Shown: in pieces, positions 1,538 through 12,359 of the stretch
Layout: every line of letters starts with the position of its first letter
How positions within the stretch are numbered: position 1 is the first letter of the stretch
Origin: a virus
UHGV virus genome: UHGV-1657810
Reading direction: 5' to 3' (one strand)
DNA length: 14,005 nt
Position numbers and translations under genes: made by a program
The notes under the pieces: generated by a model
Told to the model about the DNA's origin: nothing
The model's input: the letters and a program-made list of their open reading frames with translations, nothing else
Database searches by the model: none

Positions 1538-4008
1538 CAGAATCCCCCAACAGTAAGGCGAGGAATAACGGCAAGAACAGACAGCGGCAACGGGTCAAGC
1601 TGACGGATTTTTACACGTCCGTTTTTGCCCCAGTTACTGTCCAGTTTCACTTCTACTTTTCCGGTAGCATCATCAACAGGATCATCGTAGAACTCGAATT
1701 CACGCTGTGGATATTCGTACCATTTACCGCCGGGCGTAGTCGCCCAGATGCCGCGACTGGCATTCACAACCAGAGTAACGGAGGGGGTTACCTGTTTTTT
1801 ATCCAGCAGCGTTTCCTGTCCGTTAATGTTGATATCCAGTGTTTCGAATTCAGCAGTTATTGGCAGGCCGATGTGCACTACAGCCCCCGGAGATTCCAGC
1901 GTGACGGCACCTCCGGAAACCACTTTCTGTGGTTCCACGTTCGCATCAGAGAGAATGTTTACGGCCTGGCCTTCAAGATGAGACAGGCCTCCAAATGTCC
2001 GGCGCGCCATCTGCCAGTTCGTGGTGGCCACACTCCTGAGGGATGGCGGGACGTTCCTGTTAGCACGAACCACTACAGCGGTATTGCTGGTTACAGAAAT
2101 AATGTCGCAACGTAATTCTTTTGACACTTCATCGCCAGTATCAGGAACAGTTCCGGTATAAGGGAACTGTAGTTGCGCGCCGACATCACTACTGGTGAAG
2201 TACGCACCACCAGAAACACTGATTGTATATTCCGCACGGTAATCCCATTCACCAGAACCACCAGTGATGGTCATCGTTCTGTCAGACGTATTTCTTCCAT
2301 CATAGCTAAGGCCAGAATCAACAAAGAAAGCATCTTCATCGCTGGTAAATAAACGGCTGGACAGCCGCTCGATGTATCTCACTGTTTGCCCGTTAACGGT
2401 TCGGTTAACGACGAAATACACCGCATCTTCATTTCCTTCGCTGATACTGCATGTGCTTTCATATTTTCCGGTACTGGACTGTGGTGCCCATGCAAAAACC
2501 TGTTGATCACGCAAATAGGTCATCACCAGTAATTTACCGTCATCACGAATGCAGAAGGCGCTGGAGTAAGGGACAATAGAGAAGCACCAGTCAACGATGC
2601 TGTGCTTCTGAAAAAGATGATTAGCAAGGATGGTCAGGTCGTTCCCCTGATAGCCGTCAACATCGAATGAGTAGGCCAGATCACGGACAACACTGCCTTT
2701 CTCCTGGACGAACAGAGCAATATTCGCCACGGCAATTGGTGGGACATTGCTCGAGCCATTTGATCCCTGAGAGCTGAATGCAAATGATGATGGGGTTAAT
2801 ACTTTGTTCTGGTCGCCGGTGATGACGTACTCACCTCCGGAAGTCAGCGCCACCAGCGAACCAACATCAATCAGGTGGCGGATCTCATTAACCTGACGCC
2901 CGGCATAGGTGTAGATAATTCTGTCGTCATCCTGCGTAGGATTGCTTTTGCCAAAATCCTTATAATCCCCGGTACGGCTGGCCCAGATAGTCTGAGGGAA
3001 CGCAGTCGATGCGGCGAAGTAAAGACGTTGTTGATAATAAACAACAGTGCCAGGATAACCATTAACACTGTTCCAGGCATATTTAGCCCATTTATAGCTG
3101 GCATTATCCTCGCCAACGACCTGCGAAGGGATATAGGAAATCACCTCGGCAGTTGCAGTAGTTCCATTTGCAGCAGTGATACGGGCAATGCCAAAACCAC
3201 TGTGCAGATATTCCCACTCAATACCAGTATCATCATCACCGGATCCGCCCCAGCCATCCCATGATGTGCCTTCTGTATGCGAAGGGCGCAAAGTACCTGT
3301 TTTGCCTGCTGTAACGGCGCGATAGTAGTTACTGTCTGCACGGCGAATATCGCCAATCGACGTACTCTTACTGGTTTCCCATACCGGCACTGAATCCACT
3401 GCAGGCTGTTCCAGATAGAACAATTTGCCTACCTGCTCCGCGCCAAAAATAGAGGCGCTTGCCGTTAACGTAATTGTCCCGGTGCTGGCGCTGGCATAAA
3501 CCGTCACTGACTCGTCAATATTGATATCTTCAAATGGTCCGTTCTTCGTTACCACATCAACCAGTTGCCAGTTGTCATGCGCATAGCGACGCAACTCTTT
3601 CGGCGGGTATGCCGGATGAACAAGCGTAAGCACGTCTGCGCTTTGCGTGAATTTAATTCGGAACAGATCGGCTTCAGTATATGGCGTGGCAATTTCATAA
3701 ATAACATTGCTGCTGTTCAGCACCAACGCACCATCTTTGATAACGCGCATGTACTGGTGTCCGAACTCCAGAGCATAAGTCTGAACCGTCGAGAACTGGA
3801 ACGGGATCAGGCGGCATTTCCGATTTGGGTATTTGGCGGCACCGACAAAACGCGTACCAGGTCGATTCTCAACGCCGCCATACTGCCGCACGATAAAGTT
3901 ATCGCACTTGCGCAATGCCACCTGGTACTTCGCCATGTCGATACGACCGTACAACGACGGTCCAATCTCACCACCAGCAAAGCTGGGCTGGATCCAACTG
4001 ATAGCCAT
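1537..4008 (-). CDS. Tail tubular protein B (T7 gp12-like), 823 aa
   Basis: 823-aa ORF. The N-terminus MAISWIQPSFAGGEIGPSLYGR resembles the recalled T7 gp12 N-terminus (MALISQSIKNLKGGISQQPDIL). Size class about 800 aa, directly downstream of a roughly 200-aa gp11-like gene. ATG at 4008 overlaps the upstream stop; RBS GAGG about 10 nt upstream. Confidence 0.7.
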   Translation of the reverse strand: MAISWIQPSFAGGEIGPSLYGRIDMAKYQVALRKCDNFIVRQYGGVENRPGTRFVGAAKYPNRKCRLIPFQFSTVQTYALEFGHQYMRVIKDGALVLNSSNVIYEIATPYTEADLFRIKFTQSADVLTLVHPAYPPKELRRYAHDNWQLVDVVTKNGPFEDINIDESVTVYASASTGTITLTASASIFGAEQVGKLFYLEQPAVDSVPVWETSKSTSIGDIRRADSNYYRAVTAGKTGTLRPSHTEGTSWDGWGGSGDDDTGIEWEYLHSGFGIARITAANGTTATAEVISYIPSQVVGEDNASYKWAKYAWNSVNGYPGTVVYYQQRLYFAASTAFPQTIWASRTGDYKDFGKSNPTQDDDRIIYTYAGRQVNEIRHLIDVGSLVALTSGGEYVITGDQNKVLTPSSFAFSSQGSNGSSNVPPIAVANIALFVQEKGSVVRDLAYSFDVDGYQGNDLTILANHLFQKHSIVDWCFSIVPYSSAFCIRDDGKLLVMTYLRDQQVFAWAPQSSTGKYESTCSISEGNEDAVYFVVNRTVNGQTVRYIERLSSRLFTSDEDAFFVDSGLSYDGRNTSDRTMTITGGSGEWDYRAEYTISVSGGAYFTSSDVGAQLQFPYTGTVPDTGDEVSKELRCDIISVTSNTAVVVRANRNVPPSLRSVATTNWQMARRTFGGLSHLEGQAVNILSDANVEPQKVVSGGAVTLESPGAVVHIGLPITAEFETLDININGQETLLDKKQVTPSVTLVVNASRGIWATTPGGKWYEYPQREFEFYDDPVDDATGKVEVKLDSNWGKNGRVKIRQLDPLPLSVLAVIPRLTVGGF

Positions 4009-4613
4009 CAGGACAACCTCGCAATGGTAAACTCGTCAACCGGTGGCTGTGGTTCCTGTGATTCATTCTGGCTATGCGAACCAGCACTAAGAATCACGCG
4101 ATTGTACATATTGAGAGCAAATGTACCGAGATCCGCATTCCCAGTCAGCGCCATGTTAATGGCTGCCGCAAGACGCCAGGCCAGCGCCTCCATAAAAATG
4201 GCATCAAACATGTTCACATCTGAAACGCGAGAGACATACTTGAGCCATGCCTGCGGCTGGTCTGTATAGATCAATTTTCCTGTTCCGTTGGTGTCTGCAC
4301 CAACTTCGTACTGAACGCGCATTGCTGCTGTTGGATTGCGTACACCAGGAAGCATAATTTCAGTAATGCGCAGACAATCGGACGGGTACTGGTACGCATA
4401 TTCCCAGTCAGGCGGTGGATTGCTCGTATCTGCAAGCGCCACGCGTTTGGTAGCAAAGTTCCAGTCAAAATCAGAAAGCACAGCATCACGGCAGGCCTCA
4501 AAGTGCAGCGAACATTCCCCCGCTTCCTTGCTGGCTTCCGTCAGGCTGTTAATGCTGCGGCTATTGCCAATATTGGACAGCGCACGATTACAGATCTCTA
4601 CTACAGAGGCCAT
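4008..4613 (-). CDS. Tail tubular protein A (T7 gp11-like), 201 aa
   Basis: ORF 4008..4616 in the track. I prefer the ATG at 4613, preceded by GGAGGTGA with 5-nt spacing; the track start at 4616 is GTG. The N-terminal segment ALSNIGNSRSINSLTE is reminiscent of the T7 gp11 N-terminal region as I recall it. Size about 200 aa, immediately before the gp12-like gene. Confidence 0.6.
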   Translation of the reverse strand: MASVVEICNRALSNIGNSRSINSLTEASKEAGECSLHFEACRDAVLSDFDWNFATKRVALADTSNPPPDWEYAYQYPSDCLRITEIMLPGVRNPTAAMRVQYEVGADTNGTGKLIYTDQPQAWLKYVSRVSDVNMFDAIFMEALAWRLAAAINMALTGNADLGTFALNMYNRVILSAGSHSQNESQEPQPPVDEFTIARLS

Positions 4614-7520: not shown

Positions 7521-7817
7521 TCACTCCTGTTCACTGGCCTCTTTGGCCATCTTCAAATACTGTTCAGGGCAATGCGCCATAACGCGCTGAAACAGTTCCA
7601 GCGCCAGATTGCGTTGCCCCTCATTAAATGCCATTGCCATAGCGTCCATCGGTGAGATAGCGGAAAACACACGGCCTTTCTCCAGCACCGACCAGACAAC
7701 GCGACGTCCCTGTTCACTGCTCATGACAAAGCGAATGTCATCAATTTCACGCTGCGCCATGTCACGTTGCTTACGGGCGTTTTCTTCTTTCAGTTGATCG
7801 TCTTCGTAATCTGTCAT
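7521..7817 (-). CDS. Hypothetical protein, 98 aa, between portal and scaffold
   Basis: ATG at 7817 overlaps the portal stop (ATGA). Charged helical protein; no motif recognised. Confidence 0.5.
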   Translation of the reverse strand: MTDYEDDQLKEENARKQRDMAQREIDDIRFVMSSEQGRRVVWSVLEKGRVFSAISPMDAMAMAFNEGQRNLALELFQRVMAHCPEQYLKMAKEASEQE

Positions 7818-9493
7818 TGTGATTGCCCACCCTGACCACTAACTGCATTCGCCATAGCTGACAACACACTCGGATCCGAAGTTTTAGCTTCGCTTAGCGT
7901 CTTGGCCCCCTGTGCCGCCGCCATCCCCATCGCCATCATTTGTTGCTGCTGTTGTTGCTGTGCCCGTTGCTGGCGAGCCTGCTCAACCTGTTCCTGCGGA
8001 ACAATGACGGTTGGAGACACTCCGGACATATCAGCGAATGCATCGATCGCCTGATCAACGTTGAGTTTGTCGAGAGCTTCTGGTTTCGCTTGCGCAAGTT
8101 GACCAATGAAGTTGACCGTAGACGCCAGACTGGACAGGCCGATAGACTTCTGCGCCTGAGCCATGACGGAAATGTATTCGACCTTCAGGGGCATGCCTTC
8201 CATCGCGTCAGGCGGTGGCGGCAGCATGTTTTTACGCACCATCATCGAGAAAGAGCGGTCAATGAGAGGATTAAGACATTCGTCGTTCAGACGCTCCAGA
8301 ACCGGCCCCAACATCAGAAGTTTTTCTTCTTTCATTTCGATCACCGCTTCAACAGGCATCGAGCGGGTATTGATGTTCTGCAACATCATGAACAGATCGA
8401 CAAAGTAGGCGCTGTTAATGATTTGACGAGTGTCCTGAATGTCTGCCACCAAATCTGCTGTACTGGGGTTAACCAGATAAGCAGGCCTGAAGCCATCCTG
8501 ACCAGTAATCTGATCGATATACGTGATGTCGCCAGGAAGAAGGGAGGCGCGCTGATTCTTGAGGGAAGTCGGAGCAACCATCGGCGGATTGGTGGCTTTA
8601 TCAATCAACTGCGACTTGCGCTTCTGGAGAAGCTGCAATGCCTTAACAGGTCCAAGCGCCAGCATACCCGGGCATGATGATCCATAAACATCTTCGCCGT
8701 TAACTTCCCAGCGCGGAGCCATAATTGGAAACTCATCGAATCCGGACTCACGCAACAACTTGTCGTTATCGCCGCCAACCTCGTAATAAACCGATTTGAA
8801 TGGCTTGTTCTTGCTATCCAGCTTCGATGTATCGCGGTCAATGTTCGGGTAAACCGAATGCATCACTTCAATCCACTTCTCGTAGGTGCCGCTTTCCCAC
8901 ATGCTTTTTACGGATTCGCTGACGTTATTTAGCCCGAACTCCTGAACAAGCTGACGAACAGTCATAGAGAACTTGCGAAAACAGGTGTCCACACTGCCAC
9001 GAGGTGAGTTAGCCAAGTAGTAACTGCCTATCGGGAATGGCATTGTGCGAATGATGTCCTCATCATCCTCCAGTACCGCCATTGCGCCGGTGCTGTATGT
9101 GCCGAGGCTTCCGTATAACTGCGGCAGCGACTGATAGAGATTCGACTTATTGAACATATCGTTCATGCGGTTCTGCACGGCCTCAAGCCACAACTTAACA
9201 GGGCCATAATCCATCATTTCAGGATCTGGCGTAGCCAGGCGAAACCACGGACGCGCGGGGCTTGTGATGCCTGACATCATGCCGCTGGCGAGAGTGCGCG
9301 CCGCCATAGTCCCGGTCGAATCAATAATGCGTGTATTGCGTCGATCGTTACGGTTGACCTCAGAAGTCAGAAAGCGGGAACCACGCGGGTTGATGTAATC
9401 ACTCAACTCGCGCCAGTGCGGCTCGAACGACTGACGCTCGCTTTCAAGTTGTGCGAACTGTTTGTTCAATCGCTCTTTAGTTGTTTCCGCCAT
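7814..9493 (-). CDS. Portal protein (T7-type head-to-tail connector family), 559 aa
   Basis: 559-aa ORF immediately downstream of terL and its insert. The Gln/Ala/Met-rich C-terminal tail (QQRAQQQQQQQMMAMGMAAAQGA) is characteristic of T7 gp8-like connectors as I recall them. ATG at 9493 with GGAG SD. Confidence 0.85.
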   Translation of the reverse strand: MAETTKERLNKQFAQLESERQSFEPHWRELSDYINPRGSRFLTSEVNRNDRRNTRIIDSTGTMAARTLASGMMSGITSPARPWFRLATPDPEMMDYGPVKLWLEAVQNRMNDMFNKSNLYQSLPQLYGSLGTYSTGAMAVLEDDEDIIRTMPFPIGSYYLANSPRGSVDTCFRKFSMTVRQLVQEFGLNNVSESVKSMWESGTYEKWIEVMHSVYPNIDRDTSKLDSKNKPFKSVYYEVGGDNDKLLRESGFDEFPIMAPRWEVNGEDVYGSSCPGMLALGPVKALQLLQKRKSQLIDKATNPPMVAPTSLKNQRASLLPGDITYIDQITGQDGFRPAYLVNPSTADLVADIQDTRQIINSAYFVDLFMMLQNINTRSMPVEAVIEMKEEKLLMLGPVLERLNDECLNPLIDRSFSMMVRKNMLPPPPDAMEGMPLKVEYISVMAQAQKSIGLSSLASTVNFIGQLAQAKPEALDKLNVDQAIDAFADMSGVSPTVIVPQEQVEQARQQRAQQQQQQQMMAMGMAAAQGAKTLSEAKTSDPSVLSAMANAVSGQGGQSQ

Positions 9494-9507: not shown

Positions 9508-9714
9508 TTACTGACCAAGCAGCGTTTTACCGCTGGTATTAGCGGTTGATGTGTCGCCCTGAGAACCGGTAAGCAGCGTAGAACTACGACCAGCAGCAGC
9601 GCGACGGCGACGTGTTTCTTCGTCGCGGGCATCAACAACGGCGGCATCCTGCTCCTGTGGTGCTGCCTGAACTTCTGGTGTTGCAGGCACTGATGGTGAG
9701 CTGCCCATGCACAT
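9508..9714 (-). CDS. Hypothetical small protein, 68 aa, low complexity (uncertain)
   Basis: ORF with ATG at 9714 preceded by GGAG. Its stop at 9508 sits on the portal RBS, suggesting translational coupling. Composition is Ala/Arg/Thr-rich, so it could be a spurious ORF. Confidence 0.3.
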   Translation of the reverse strand: MCMGSSPSVPATPEVQAAPQEQDAAVVDARDEETRRRRAAAGRSSTLLTGSQGDTSTANTSGKTLLGQ

Positions 9715-9865
9715 ATCAATGACTCCGTACGCAATTAAATTATTACCAATTTAACCACATATGATTTATTTATCGTAGATAGTTGACATTTAACGCACAA
9801 ATTATTACCTTCAAGGTAAGTAAAGGGTTCATTCCGGTTATTAACCTGACTGGCTTGTCGTTAAA

Positions 9866-9893
9866 TTGAACAGGTGGAGTGAGCTTTTATTTT
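9866..9893 (+). promoter_or_regulatory. Candidate sigma70 promoter for the plus-strand tRNA/moron transcript (weak)
   Basis: TTGAAC (9866-9871), 16-bp spacer, TATTTT (9888-9893), inside an AT-rich segment. An alternative perfect -35 TTGACA at 9783-9788 has only a weak -10. Not verified. Confidence 0.2.
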
Positions 9894-10141
9894 GAGCAGT
9901 ACGGCGTATGGCACATGCGCCGATAGCGGTCTGGATACGTTTAAGGGGCACCCTCCCTTGCTCGGGCAAACGAACCAGGTAGCCGGAATGTGCAAGTCGA
10001 GCGGTTTTATTCCGCGCACGGGGATTCACCATCCCGGAGATTCGGTGTGACACCTCGGAAGAGACGAGGGTACAACGATGAGAGCATTTATGGAGCCGCG
10101 ACAAAGTGTGGCGCCTTAACAGGCTAAGTGCTCTCAGCGTT

Positions 10142-10218
10142 GTGGCATTAGCTCAGTTGGACAGAGCAACCGCCTTCTAAGCGGTTGGTCGCAGGTTCGA
10201 ATCCTGCATGCCACGCCA
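10142..10218 (+). tRNA. tRNA-Arg, anticodon UCU (reads AGA/AGG)
   Basis: 77-nt perfect cloverleaf read by hand: acceptor GTGGCAT/ATGCCAC (7 bp), D stem GCTC/GAGC, anticodon stem ACCGC/GCGGT with loop CTTCTAA (anticodon TCT), T stem GCAGG/CCTGC with T-loop TTCGAAT, discriminator G and encoded CCA. The body resembles enterobacterial argU as I recall it. Confidence 0.93.
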
Positions 10219-10261: not shown

Positions 10262-10303
10262 GGCGGTGATGGTTTCCCTTGAAGGACTATCACCGCCCTT
10301 TTT
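10262..10303 (+). terminator. Rho-independent terminator downstream of the tRNA
   Basis: GGCGGTGAT (10262-10270) pairs with ATCACCGCC (10289-10297), a 9-bp stem with a structured loop, followed by CTTTTT (10298-10303). Confidence 0.65.
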
Positions 10304-10381
10304 ACAGCAGGACGCCATTGCGATGACTTCATGCTGTAAACCAGTACAGCCACGGAAGGCATAACTCATTGCTTCCAGTTC

Positions 10382-10405
10382 GCCCGGTTCGCCGGGCATT
10401 TTTTT
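10382..10405 (+). promoter_or_regulatory. Hairpin plus T-tract immediately upstream of the moron ORF RBS (terminator or attenuator-like)
   Basis: GCCCGG-TTCG-CCGGGC (6-bp GC stem, TTCG loop) followed by ATTTTTTT, then the SD AAGGTGAG and ATG at 10422. Confidence 0.4.
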
Positions 10406-10421
10406 AAGGTGAGATTAGACT

Positions 10422-10793
10422 ATGAGTGACAAAGACATTGAATCTGAAATTCAGGCTAAAGGTTTAGCCGCGCCGCGCGTTACGCCAGACAATATCGAGA
10501 GCATTATTGCTCAGGAGTCATATTTCACAGCAGAAGATGGTGCCTTTGGCGTAGCCATAAAAGCGAAACATACTGGCGGAGAGGTAAACTACCAGCCGCA
10601 CGAATCACTTTCTCTGCTGACGTTCTGCGTCCTGGTGCTGCGCAACGGCTTCACCGTCACCGGAGAGAGCGCCTGTGCAAGCCCGGAAAACTTTGATGCA
10701 GAAATTGGTCGGAAGATTGCCCGACAGAATGCTGTAAACAAAATCTGGATGCTTGAAGGTTACTTGCTGAAGCAGAAGTTAAGCGAGCAATAA
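10422..10793 (+). CDS. Hypothetical moron protein, 123 aa, cytoplasmic, unknown function
   Basis: Only convincing plus-strand ORF in the window. ATG at 10422 with AGGTGA SD, TAA at 10791, own terminator downstream. No signal peptide or TM segment; acidic N-terminus, C-terminal amphipathic helix (AEIGRKIARQNAVNKIWMLEGYLLKQ). Possibly related to the small phage accessory family typified by N4 gp49 / Sf6 gp66, but that is an unverified recollection. Confidence 0.6.
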   Translation: MSDKDIESEIQAKGLAAPRVTPDNIESIIAQESYFTAEDGAFGVAIKAKHTGGEVNYQPHESLSLLTFCVLVLRNGFTVTGESACASPENFDAEIGRKIARQNAVNKIWMLEGYLLKQKLSEQ

Positions 10794-10813: not shown

Positions 10814-10842
10814 AGCCAGCCTATGAGCTGGCTTTGTTTTAT
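10814..10842 (+). terminator. Rho-independent terminator after the moron ORF (possibly bidirectional)
   Basis: AGCCAGC-CTATGA-GCTGGCT (7-bp stem) followed by TTGTTTTAT on the plus strand. On the minus strand the hairpin is followed by GUUUGUGAU, so it may also act weakly after terL. Confidence 0.55.
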
Positions 10843-10883: not shown

Positions 10884-12359
10884 TTAAGCATAGGGATCGT
10901 AATCTGTGATGGCCTTGCCTTGCTGGTTCTGCTGCCCGGGAATTCGCAGACGCTTAGACACAGGGAACGCAAACGTCAGCAGTAGCGCATCGCCTTTACC
11001 CGGTGAACGCCCAAGCCGCTCCTTGATATCTTCCTTCGGTTCGATAACGATTTTACCGTCCACTCGAACTTTGTACTCTGCCGCCGACAGGTCGTCTGCT
11101 GTTTCCTGGTCATCCAGCATGCCGCCAAGCCTCAGCCATGTCTTGCATGAATTGAACATCTCCCCACGCTTGTTGAGCATCTGCGGGTCAGTAGACGCGC
11201 CACCGAACGGAACAAGTTGCCATGTACGACCCCAGCCATCACCGATTGACTTCAGACCGGTTCCGTAACCGAAGTCGATGAACACCGCGTCAGCCTGGTA
11301 CTGGTCTTCAAAGTCGGCGATACGCTTCGCCATAATCAGATCGTCAGTGGTCTTGTTGCCGGTCCACAGCACCTTACTGTGCAGCCCCTGCCGCAGGTAT
11401 ATCACAGCGTCATCAACGCCGGAGTATGCCGGGTCAACACCGATTATCACCGGAGCATGTGCCACCTGCGCAGCGGTTACCACCCGTTTCATTGCCTCAT
11501 CAGTAAGACCGGTAGGGATAAACTGCAATTCAGATGCATCAGGGAATATGCCACGCACACGGATTTTAACGAAGTCGCTGTCTTCCCCGTAGTCATCAAC
11601 CCATTTCTGCAACTGCTGTTTGTTGGTACCTTCCACCGTACGACTGTCAATCTGCGCAGTTTTCCAGCGGTGTTTATACTTGCGGAAACATTCACGGAAA
11701 CGTCCGGTATTACGCGTCGGGTTCCCGAACGCCACCCAGATGATTTCGGTGTCTTCGTCCGTCAGCGCACCCTCTGCTACCTCCCACACCAGATCGGCAA
11801 TGTTCGACGCTTCATCGAATACCACGATGATGCGTTTGCGCTCGTTGTGTAGTCCGGCGAATGCCTCAGTGTTGTGCTCAGACCAGGGGATTGCGTCAGC
11901 TCGCCACCGCTTGTCGTGCCCAGGGTCATTGCTGTACATCGCGGTAGCGGTACAGGTAAACCAGTCTTTCGTGATAGCAAGGTTTGACCACTTGATAATT
12001 TCCGGCCAGGTCTTCGTTCGTAGCTGGTTGTCGGTGTTGGCGGTCACCACGACCTTACAATCCTCGCAAGTGGACATGCCCCAGTTGATCAGCATTGAGA
12101 TGAATGCGGATTTACCAATACCGTGACCAGAAGCGCGTGCCAGCATAAGCGGCTGATAGCGCGTCTCTGGATTCTGCAGGTGATCGCGTATCTCTCGGAA
12201 CGCATCAGCCTGCCACTGACGTGGGCCGGTAGCATGTGCCAGTTCAGTCCCCTCTTCCCCCCAAGGGAACGCATAGAGGGCATAGCCAAGCGGATCGTGA
12301 GTGAACCCTGCAATATCCTCGATCAACTGCTCTTCAGGAGATAACGCTGTATCTGTCAC
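10884..12359 (-). CDS. Terminase large subunit, 491 aa
   Basis: Walker A P-loop ARASGHGIGKSA, Walker B IIVVFDEAS, and a C-terminal nuclease-like region (IIGVDPAYSG...D...). Directly downstream of terS with a GTGA start/stop overlap; start is GTG at 12359. Confidence 0.92.
   Translation of the reverse strand: MTDTALSPEEQLIEDIAGFTHDPLGYALYAFPWGEEGTELAHATGPRQWQADAFREIRDHLQNPETRYQPLMLARASGHGIGKSAFISMLINWGMSTCEDCKVVVTANTDNQLRTKTWPEIIKWSNLAITKDWFTCTATAMYSNDPGHDKRWRADAIPWSEHNTEAFAGLHNERKRIIVVFDEASNIADLVWEVAEGALTDEDTEIIWVAFGNPTRNTGRFRECFRKYKHRWKTAQIDSRTVEGTNKQQLQKWVDDYGEDSDFVKIRVRGIFPDASELQFIPTGLTDEAMKRVVTAAQVAHAPVIIGVDPAYSGVDDAVIYLRQGLHSKVLWTGNKTTDDLIMAKRIADFEDQYQADAVFIDFGYGTGLKSIGDGWGRTWQLVPFGGASTDPQMLNKRGEMFNSCKTWLRLGGMLDDQETADDLSAAEYKVRVDGKIVIEPKEDIKERLGRSPGKGDALLLTFAFPVSKRLRIPGQQNQQGKAITDYDPYA

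Follow-up and report, generated by a model that had tools for sequence, protein, structure and literature searches.

A widespread, unannotated phage RNA family found beside a tRNA-Arg gene, with a possible put-like role in antitermination

The viral DNA analyzed here (UHGV virus genome UHGV-1657810; a stretch of 14,005 nt, hereafter the window) carries at positions 9901-10143 of the plus strand a non-coding region composed of two conserved RNA modules, a structured core (9901-10070) and a long hairpin (10072-10143). The core is a real, widespread and unannotated family of folded RNA. We tentatively propose, at a probability of roughly 45%, that this element is a cis-acting processive antiterminator RNA resembling the put RNAs of phage HK022 but with a new and larger architecture. 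This reading is preferred because of the fixed position of the element in the leader, the terminators that follow it, the lack of N, the genomic slot and the hairpin shared with put, and a leader that is untranslated and prone to Rho.

The window matches epsilon15/phiV10-type phages (genus Uetakevirus) and E. coli prophages, with 98-99.7% identity. The element belongs to a plus-strand unit set between the portal gene (7814-9493) and the large terminase gene (10884-12359), both on the minus strand, as is a small ORF at 9508-9714. This unit comprises an AT-rich region, the structured RNA, tRNA-Arg(TCT) (10142-10218), two intrinsic terminators and a cargo gene of the Phage_gp49_66 family (10422-10793; PF13876, Pfam E = 4.8e-35), annotated as Gp49 family protein. 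Terminator T1 (10262-10307) consists of a 14-bp stem (10262-10297) followed by CTTTTT, and T2 (10382-10407) of GCCCGG-TTCG-CCGGGC (10382-10397) followed by ATTTTTTT, ending ~15 nt upstream of the gene start at 10422.

Covariance model R1 matches the core over its full length (9901-10070, plus strand; 139.1 bits, E = 1.6e-40, model positions 1-152). The core is ~170 nt long in the window and 144-175 nt in the family, with four helices and at least one pseudoknot supported by covariation. In an alignment of 29 core representatives less than 92% identical to one another (A2), 94.4% of the cells are paired, versus 30-47% when the partners are slid by 1-3 columns. Both sides are changed at 11 pairs (66 cells), and the observed covariation score was reached by none of 500 shuffles. 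The fold of 9901-10150 has an energy of -98.4 kcal/mol (z = -3.06 versus 200 dinucleotide shuffles). The initial annotation had taken 9880-10141 for a structured non-coding RNA, and the compensatory base changes found in relatives, in the core and in the long hairpin alike, bear this out.

Hairpin P1 (9902-9922, helix 1, 98.6% paired) joins CGGCG (9902-9906) to CGCCG (9918-9922) around the loop UAUGGCACAUG, within which CAUG is invariant. At its pair 6:18, 17 sequences have G-C and 11 have A-U; at its pair 4:20, 15 have G.U and 11 have G-C. P2 (9930-9979, helix 3) is formed by UCUGG (9930-9934) and CCAGG (9975-9979) around a variable insert whose loop is of the CCUU type; 19 sequences have C-G and 10 have U-A at pair 32:84, and 27 have G-C and two have A-U at pair 33:83. 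An invariant 19-mer, GGUAGCCGGAAUGUGCAAG, occupies 9978-9996. Within it, AUGUGC (9988-9993) has its complement, GCACAU (9911-9916), in the P1 hairpin loop, and the two would form a possible pseudoknot, PK1. This pseudoknot is predicted by RNAalifold and competes with an extended local P1 hairpin; the corresponding helix 2 shows no variation in A2 and, since both strands are invariant, covariation neither supports nor contradicts it. Hairpin P4 (10021-10035, helix 4, 97.4% paired) pairs 10021-10024 with 10032-10035, shows both-side changes in three of its four pairs and has a conserved UCACCA loop. From this loop, CACC (10027-10030) pairs with GGUG (10044-10047) as pseudoknot PK2 (10027-10047, helix 5), which is 100% paired, with C-G at pair 142:162 in 26 sequences and A-U there in three. 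Hairpin P5 (10053-10069, helix 6) pairs 10053-10058 with 10064-10069 around a conserved GAAGAGA loop, with three pairs changed on both sides.

Of the three short hairpins singled out by the initial annotation, GGGAT/ATCCC (exact at 10021-10025/10031-10035) is the conserved covarying helix P4, and CCTCG/CGAGG (10053-10057/10065-10069) is likewise P5. The third, CGGAAT/ATTCCG, is present at 9984-9989/10009-10014, its end having been placed two bases short at 10012, but it is not conserved because an invariant segment there pairs with one that differs in every lineage.

The long hairpin is written ACAACG-AU-GAGAGCAUUUA / UAAGUGCUCUC-AG-CGUUGU. Its conserved base, ACAACG-AU-GAGAGCAUU / AGUGCUCUC-AG-CGUUGU, carries a variable top of ~30-240 nt. 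In an alignment of 22 variants (A3), 96.8% of the cells are paired and seven of 16 pairs are changed on both sides, one position running through G-C, U-A, A-U and C-G. The 3' strand ends on nucleotides +1 and +2 of tRNA-Arg, the sole tRNA matched by ARAGORN or Rfam in the region. In line with the initial annotation, the consensus scan calls no promoter between the structured region and the tRNA. Because of this, and because the hairpin overlaps the tRNA, the structured RNA is very probably co-transcribed with tRNA-Arg. A 13-codon ORF reported earlier (ATG at 10078, TAA at 10117-10119) is present, but it sits inside the covarying hairpin and is not conserved: 10 of 24 variants lack its ATG and, in those that have one, the ORF runs for 5-53 codons. 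With neither start nor length kept, it was rejected as a conserved peptide or leader peptide. A likeness of the segment UGCUCU to boxA was also dropped, because this segment is one strand of a covarying helix. Extra copies of the long hairpin were seen 5' of the core in phage Tyrion (locus L007, 2290-2430) and as a second 3' copy in phage SopranoGao (L009, 2830-2930), and 9850-9895 of the window (GTCGTTAAAT...GGTGGAGTGAGCTTT) resembles a degenerate 3' half of one such upstream copy.

That the region is an ordinary tRNA precursor leader, a decayed tRNA or a coding stretch (the 13-codon ORF or antisense ORFs) is hardly credible. It does lie adjacent to the tRNA in the same orientation, and co-transcription was rightly anticipated, but in ~83 of the 128 loci oriented on the element for context comparison the core occurs without any tRNA, and in phage P1 it lies 3' of one; it is therefore not merely a tRNA leader. 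ARAGORN and Rfam see no tRNA in the core, and the degenerate second tRNA once suggested for 9880-10141 was found by neither, even at E ≤ 10. The covariance scan of this region against Rfam 15 likewise returned no family at the gathering threshold or at E ≤ 10, and the core, searched from the window and from its homologue in phage mEp460, gave only chance-level matches even at E ≤ 10. As to coding, 9880-10141 holds no plus-strand ORF of 60 aa or more, as stated initially (the longest has 52 aa, TTG start, 9892-10050), and is overlapped by minus-strand ORFs of 87 and 52 aa. GenBank records place hypothetical proteins over the RNA (mEp460_037 and Tyrion gp54), which would favor a coding reading, but 3- and 4-nt indels relative to mEp460 break the frame, substitutions track base-pairing rather than codons, and the ORF ATG is not conserved. 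We reject a protein-coding reading because the indels are not frame-preserving and the substitutions follow the pairing. The plain tRNA-leader, degenerate-tRNA and coding readings are thus contradicted.

ORFs annotated as hypothetical proteins over or antisense to the RNA modules include mEp460_037 (L002, 2943-3311, minus strand), Tyrion gp54 (L007, 2601-2762) and WCS67766 of BUCT709 (L008, 2323-2613, minus strand); PhiV10p04 (L134, 2672-2923), over the adjacent tRNA and terminator region, is possibly the same kind of call. Such ORFs over the RNA modules are probably spurious.

The element extends well beyond the relatives of the window. A 256-nt query (9895-10150) matched 85 phage records and 591 plasmid records, with the element at 78-83% identity in phages unrelated to Uetakevirus. 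These carriers include the lambdoid phages mEp460, cdtI and 2H10, Stx2c and Stx2a converting phages, the phage-plasmids P1, P7, D6 and other P1-like elements, Klebsiella and Salmonella phages, the virulent-type Klebsiella phage SopranoGao and a phage listed under Stenotrophomonas. The same core is found in these unrelated phage types as a self-contained module. An invariant 17-mer taken from the 19-mer was used to retrieve the family and yielded at least 120 IMG/VR contigs with 106 distinct variants. It also matched 46 genome contigs, 23 of them confirmed by the covariance model; all of these are Enterobacterales reference genomes except one 1.7-kb contig binned as Bacillota. R1 rejected about 20 of the 46, which come from unrelated MAGs and match the 17-mer by chance. 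The 170-nt core is present in 1836 of 5426 complete E. coli genomes (34%), in up to four copies per genome; among 12 of these matches listed, 11 coincide with no annotated feature and one with a hypothetical protein. Each phage genome checked has a single copy, with no second copy 3' of pR (mEp460, phiV10 and shorter loci). One locus (L027) has, ~740 nt downstream of the full copy and on the same strand, a partial second copy at ~4090-4152 (minus strand) consisting of the P1 hairpin and the start of P2 before the sequence diverges.

Three genomic contexts were seen among the 128 loci. About 45 share the arrangement of the window, between the terminase and portal genes and opposite to the structural genes, and tRNA-Arg(TCT) lies directly 3' of the hairpin in 28 loci. 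In 17 P1-type loci the core occurs without the long hairpin, 18 nt 3' of tRNA-Ile(CAT) and ~100 nt before ban. About 70 loci are lambdoid. Among these, 43 of 43 tblastn matches place a cI-like repressor upstream of the element and in the same orientation (28-100% identical to two query repressors); Pfam analysis of one such repressor returned HTH_3 and Peptidase_S24, and an ORF map gives the same layout for further lambdoid loci with other cI types. The order in mEp460 is cI, its own terminator, two OL-type operators like those at pR, a TTGCAT-17-TATCTT promoter and the element, which begins ~40 nt after the predicted start site and occupies the pL leader. In nearly all loci, strong terminator hairpins lie 220-700 nt downstream of the element and before the first gene, and the genes past them are ordinary early-left genes (DUF2303, ParB-like HTH, RdgC). 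No N homologue was matched within ~4 kb of any element by tblastn at E ≤ 1 with lambda, P22 and phage 21 queries; a match in the P22-like phage UPF_BP1 (L137) served as the positive control. The mEp460 and Stx2a_1447 records contain no annotated N.

The slot held by tRNA-Arg in the window is occupied in lambdoid relatives by a tRNA-like fold of 88-156 nt, at 3241-3372 in mEp460 (L002) and also 3' of the hairpin in L007, L009, L016, L036, L058, L073 and L100. It has an acceptor stem GUGGUGA/YCACCAC, a D-arm-like GCGC-AGGCUGAU-GCGC, a T-arm-like CCGG-AGAUCAGCA-CCGG and a large, variable center, with compensatory changes visible by eye (GCAC/GUGC in L016, CUGG/CCAG in L058). Neither ARAGORN nor Rfam called this fold. 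Other loci have decayed tRNAs in the same slot.

The flanking folds bear on the main alternative, in which the core and long hairpin form a stable, trans-acting non-coding RNA of ~245 nt that is released by RNase P at the adjoining tRNA or tRNA-like fold. It would act, for instance as a sponge, an anti-defence factor or a tRNA-related factor, on a protein of the host or the phage. Substrates of the RNase P type do flank the core in all three contexts, as the tRNA-Arg immediately 3' in the 28 loci, the cloverleaf-like fold 3' in many lambdoid loci and the tRNA-Ile 5' in the P1-type loci. The covarying hairpin stops precisely at tRNA +1/+2, where a hairpin protecting the 3' end would be expected; a terminator-like hairpin comes almost directly after the core in two loci (L033, L089); and the core moves as a self-contained module among unrelated phage types. 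This alternative nevertheless leaves the fixed pL-leader placement ahead of terminators and an operon unexplained, and no candidate partner gene is common to P1, epsilon15-like and lambdoid phages. We consider it unlikely as the function of the element, and it is compatible with antitermination because put works untethered (PMC9378689).

Two candidate promoters could serve the plus-strand unit of the window. The first, the putative promoter 9783-9811, read from the sequence and missed by the consensus promoter scan, is TTGACA (9783-9788), a 17-nt spacer and TACCTT (9806-9811); this arrangement, with a palindrome over the -10, is kept in epsilon15-like relatives. The palindrome, TTACC-N5-GGTAA (9807-9821), overlaps the -10, and AAATTATTACC occurs twice close by, at ~9746 and ~9799. 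The whole arrangement of palindrome, repeat and promoter (9745-9825) is kept in SPN1S, Tyrion and a Klebsiella phage and is possibly an operator in a divergent promoter region between the portal operon and the plus-strand unit. A weaker alternative, TTGAAC, a 16-nt spacer and TATTTT (9866-9893, plus strand), was likewise read from the sequence and uncalled by the consensus scan. Its predicted start (~9900-9901) falls at the 5' edge of the conserved RNA, and it is restricted to the lineage of the window, being absent from the Klebsiella phage and Tyrion relatives.

The antiterminator reading would work in the window as follows. The nascent core (9901-10070) would act in cis on its own RNA polymerase, as HK022 put does, and the modified elongation complex would resist Rho along the long untranslated leader, pass T1 (10262) and T2 (10382) and reach the cargo gene at 10422. 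By the same action, polymerase in lambdoid relatives would be able to transcribe the early-left operon in full. The resistance of put to intrinsic and Rho-dependent termination fits a leader built of untranslated modules. The long hairpin and the tRNA would be accessory modules of the same leader, and an RNase P cut at the tRNA 5' end would free an RNA of core and hairpin with its 3' end protected by the hairpin. We infer transcription of the region, contact with RNA polymerase, antitermination and processing by RNase P. Some observations count against antitermination. In phages P1 and P7 the ban-operon operator is ~2.4 kb upstream of the core, which immediately follows tRNA-Ile, and no strong terminator was seen before ban; the epsilon15-like unit of the window leads to one small gene only. 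In addition, antitermination may fail at terminators with a long stem, T1 among them, as has been reported for another system (PMC10325885).

Two further features of the unit were observed. The gap between T1 and T2 (10300-10407) is a conserved stretch of ~100 nt in which a hairpin, ACAGCAGG...CATGCTGT, is followed by CACGGAAGGCA...UUGCUUCC and finally by T2; it is also kept in Tyrion, SPN1S and the Klebsiella phage, has a weak RyhB-like Rfam match (18 bits, E = 1.3) and may belong to the leader or be a small RNA in its own right. The second feature is a bidirectional terminator-like hairpin at 10814-10833, in the space that separates the gp49-family gene from the convergent large terminase gene. 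Without it, an antiterminated plus-strand complex would run antisense into the terminase genes.

A riboswitch-like or protein-binding leader, whose alternative folds control downstream termination or translation, was also considered. Like a typical aptamer, the core combines a pseudoknot with invariant unpaired nucleotides and variable peripheral hairpins, the P1 hairpin loop has two exclusive pairings (the extended local hairpin or PK1), and in some variants GAGG in the P5 3' arm lies 8-9 nt before an AUG. This AUG is, however, absent after P5 in 10 of 24 variants, which leaves no conserved platform for translational control, and the terminators lie 200-700 nt away with unrelated modules between, so that no expression platform overlaps the core. 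The absence of an Rfam match and the functionally unrelated downstream genes, which give no hint of a ligand, argue in the same direction, and we regard such a leader as quite improbable. Readings as a retron, an omega RNA, a bridge RNA or a type III toxin-antitoxin system were dropped because the annotated contexts contain no reverse transcriptase, TnpB, IS110 recombinase or toxin gene.

No description of the element was found in Rfam 15, the inspected genome records or the searchable literature, King et al. 2011 and the motif-by-motif tables of a published catalogue (PMC10690425; ~10,000 candidate structured RNAs of viruses) lying outside this search. The element differs from svsR (PMC12803456) and from the Pas sRNAs (bioRxiv 2026.05.13.724894). 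Should the antiterminator reading be wrong, a covariation-supported RNA in 34% of complete E. coli genomes would still merit a family model, which would correct the spurious hypothetical protein calls over the element. To our knowledge, put, present in a handful of phages, is essentially the sole family known to carry out processive antitermination by RNA alone. If the element does the same job, it would explain the expression of the early-left operon in many lambdoid phages without N, including Stx2a and Stx2c converting phages. It would also add to put a second natural RNA able to reprogram E. coli RNA polymerase, of use in synthetic biology and for comparing structures.

Compared with known systems, the element resembles lambda nutL with N in its place in the pL leader and in the presumed need to pass early-left terminators. 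Unlike nutL, it is far larger than boxA plus boxB and its helices covary as an autonomous fold; a lambda-type nut site was rejected, with no N homologue matched in any element locus. The C4 RNA of P1/P7 and the CI RNA of P4 are phage RNAs processed by RNase P, and the C4 family is in Rfam. Like these RNAs, and like tRNA genes in lambdoid late leaders, the element adjoins a tRNA or tRNA-like fold that could define one of its ends. Unlike C4 and CI RNAs, it has no sequence or Rfam relation to them (C4 was not matched), and the RNase P cut is only proposed here.

The put RNAs of HK022 are cis-acting, ~70 nt long and located downstream of pL and pR, and make RNA polymerase resist intrinsic and Rho-dependent terminators via the beta-prime zinc-binding domain (PMC9378689). 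Cryo-EM showed a CAUG bulge (with an essential U28) contacting this domain and a G.U at the third pair of stem I, and put RNA remains active on polymerase once untethered from the transcript (PMC9378689). With put, the element shares little architecture: put has two stem-loops in a V and a 5' triplex in stem I, whereas the core is ~170 nt long with four helices and pseudoknot(s), and no 5' strand complementary to the P1 hairpin loop was seen in it. Put sites come as an L/R pair, whereas each genome checked has one copy of the element with no putR counterpart, and the element also occurs outside lambdoid phages (epsilon15-like, P1/P7, Lastavirus). R1 gave no significant score on the put sites of HK022 and HK639, even with filters off on 250 nt, where scores over the putL stem region are -4.4 to -5.3 bits. 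The covariance model thus does not support placing the element in the put family, and we do not file it there because R1 misses put, the architecture differs and each genome checked has one copy. If PK1 forms, the CAUG of the core is base-paired, unlike the exposed CAUG of put.

In position, the likeness to put is closer. As with the put RNAs of HK022, HK639, HK75, phiEt88 and P22-like phages, the element lies in the leader 3' of the early promoter pL. The lambdoid slot directly after cI and on the same strand is also that of putL, since canonical putL occupies the same place between cI and leader in HK022-type and P22-like phages. HK639 has its putL-like RNA annotated just 3' of the putative pL, with several genes between cI and pL. 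An 'M3-like RNA' annotated after cII in HK639 (L135, 12911-12970) has no similarity to the element. Like put phages, element carriers have no detectable N and have downstream terminators to pass.

The P1 hairpin also resembles the lower part of putL stem I, with the stem CGGCG/CGUCG, a third pair that is often G.U and a preceding CAUG. A motif drawn from it, CGG[CT][GA]-N7-16-CATG[CT]G[CT]CG, whose spacer range was chosen after put was seen, had seven matches outside the family in 3.4 Mb: the putL sites of all four put phages fetched, one partial element copy and two random sites. The four putL matches amount to about one independent event, because putL sites are homologous. That the element is a second, distinct class of RNA-only antiterminator, with a put-like CAUG hairpin docking on the beta-prime zinc-binding domain and release by RNase P at the tRNA or its mimic, is conceivable, although we hold this fuller scheme to be doubtful. 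Were it correct, this second class would be larger and far more widespread than put, occurring in about one-third of complete E. coli genomes and spanning phage P1, epsilon15-like phages, and lambdoid and Stx phages without N.
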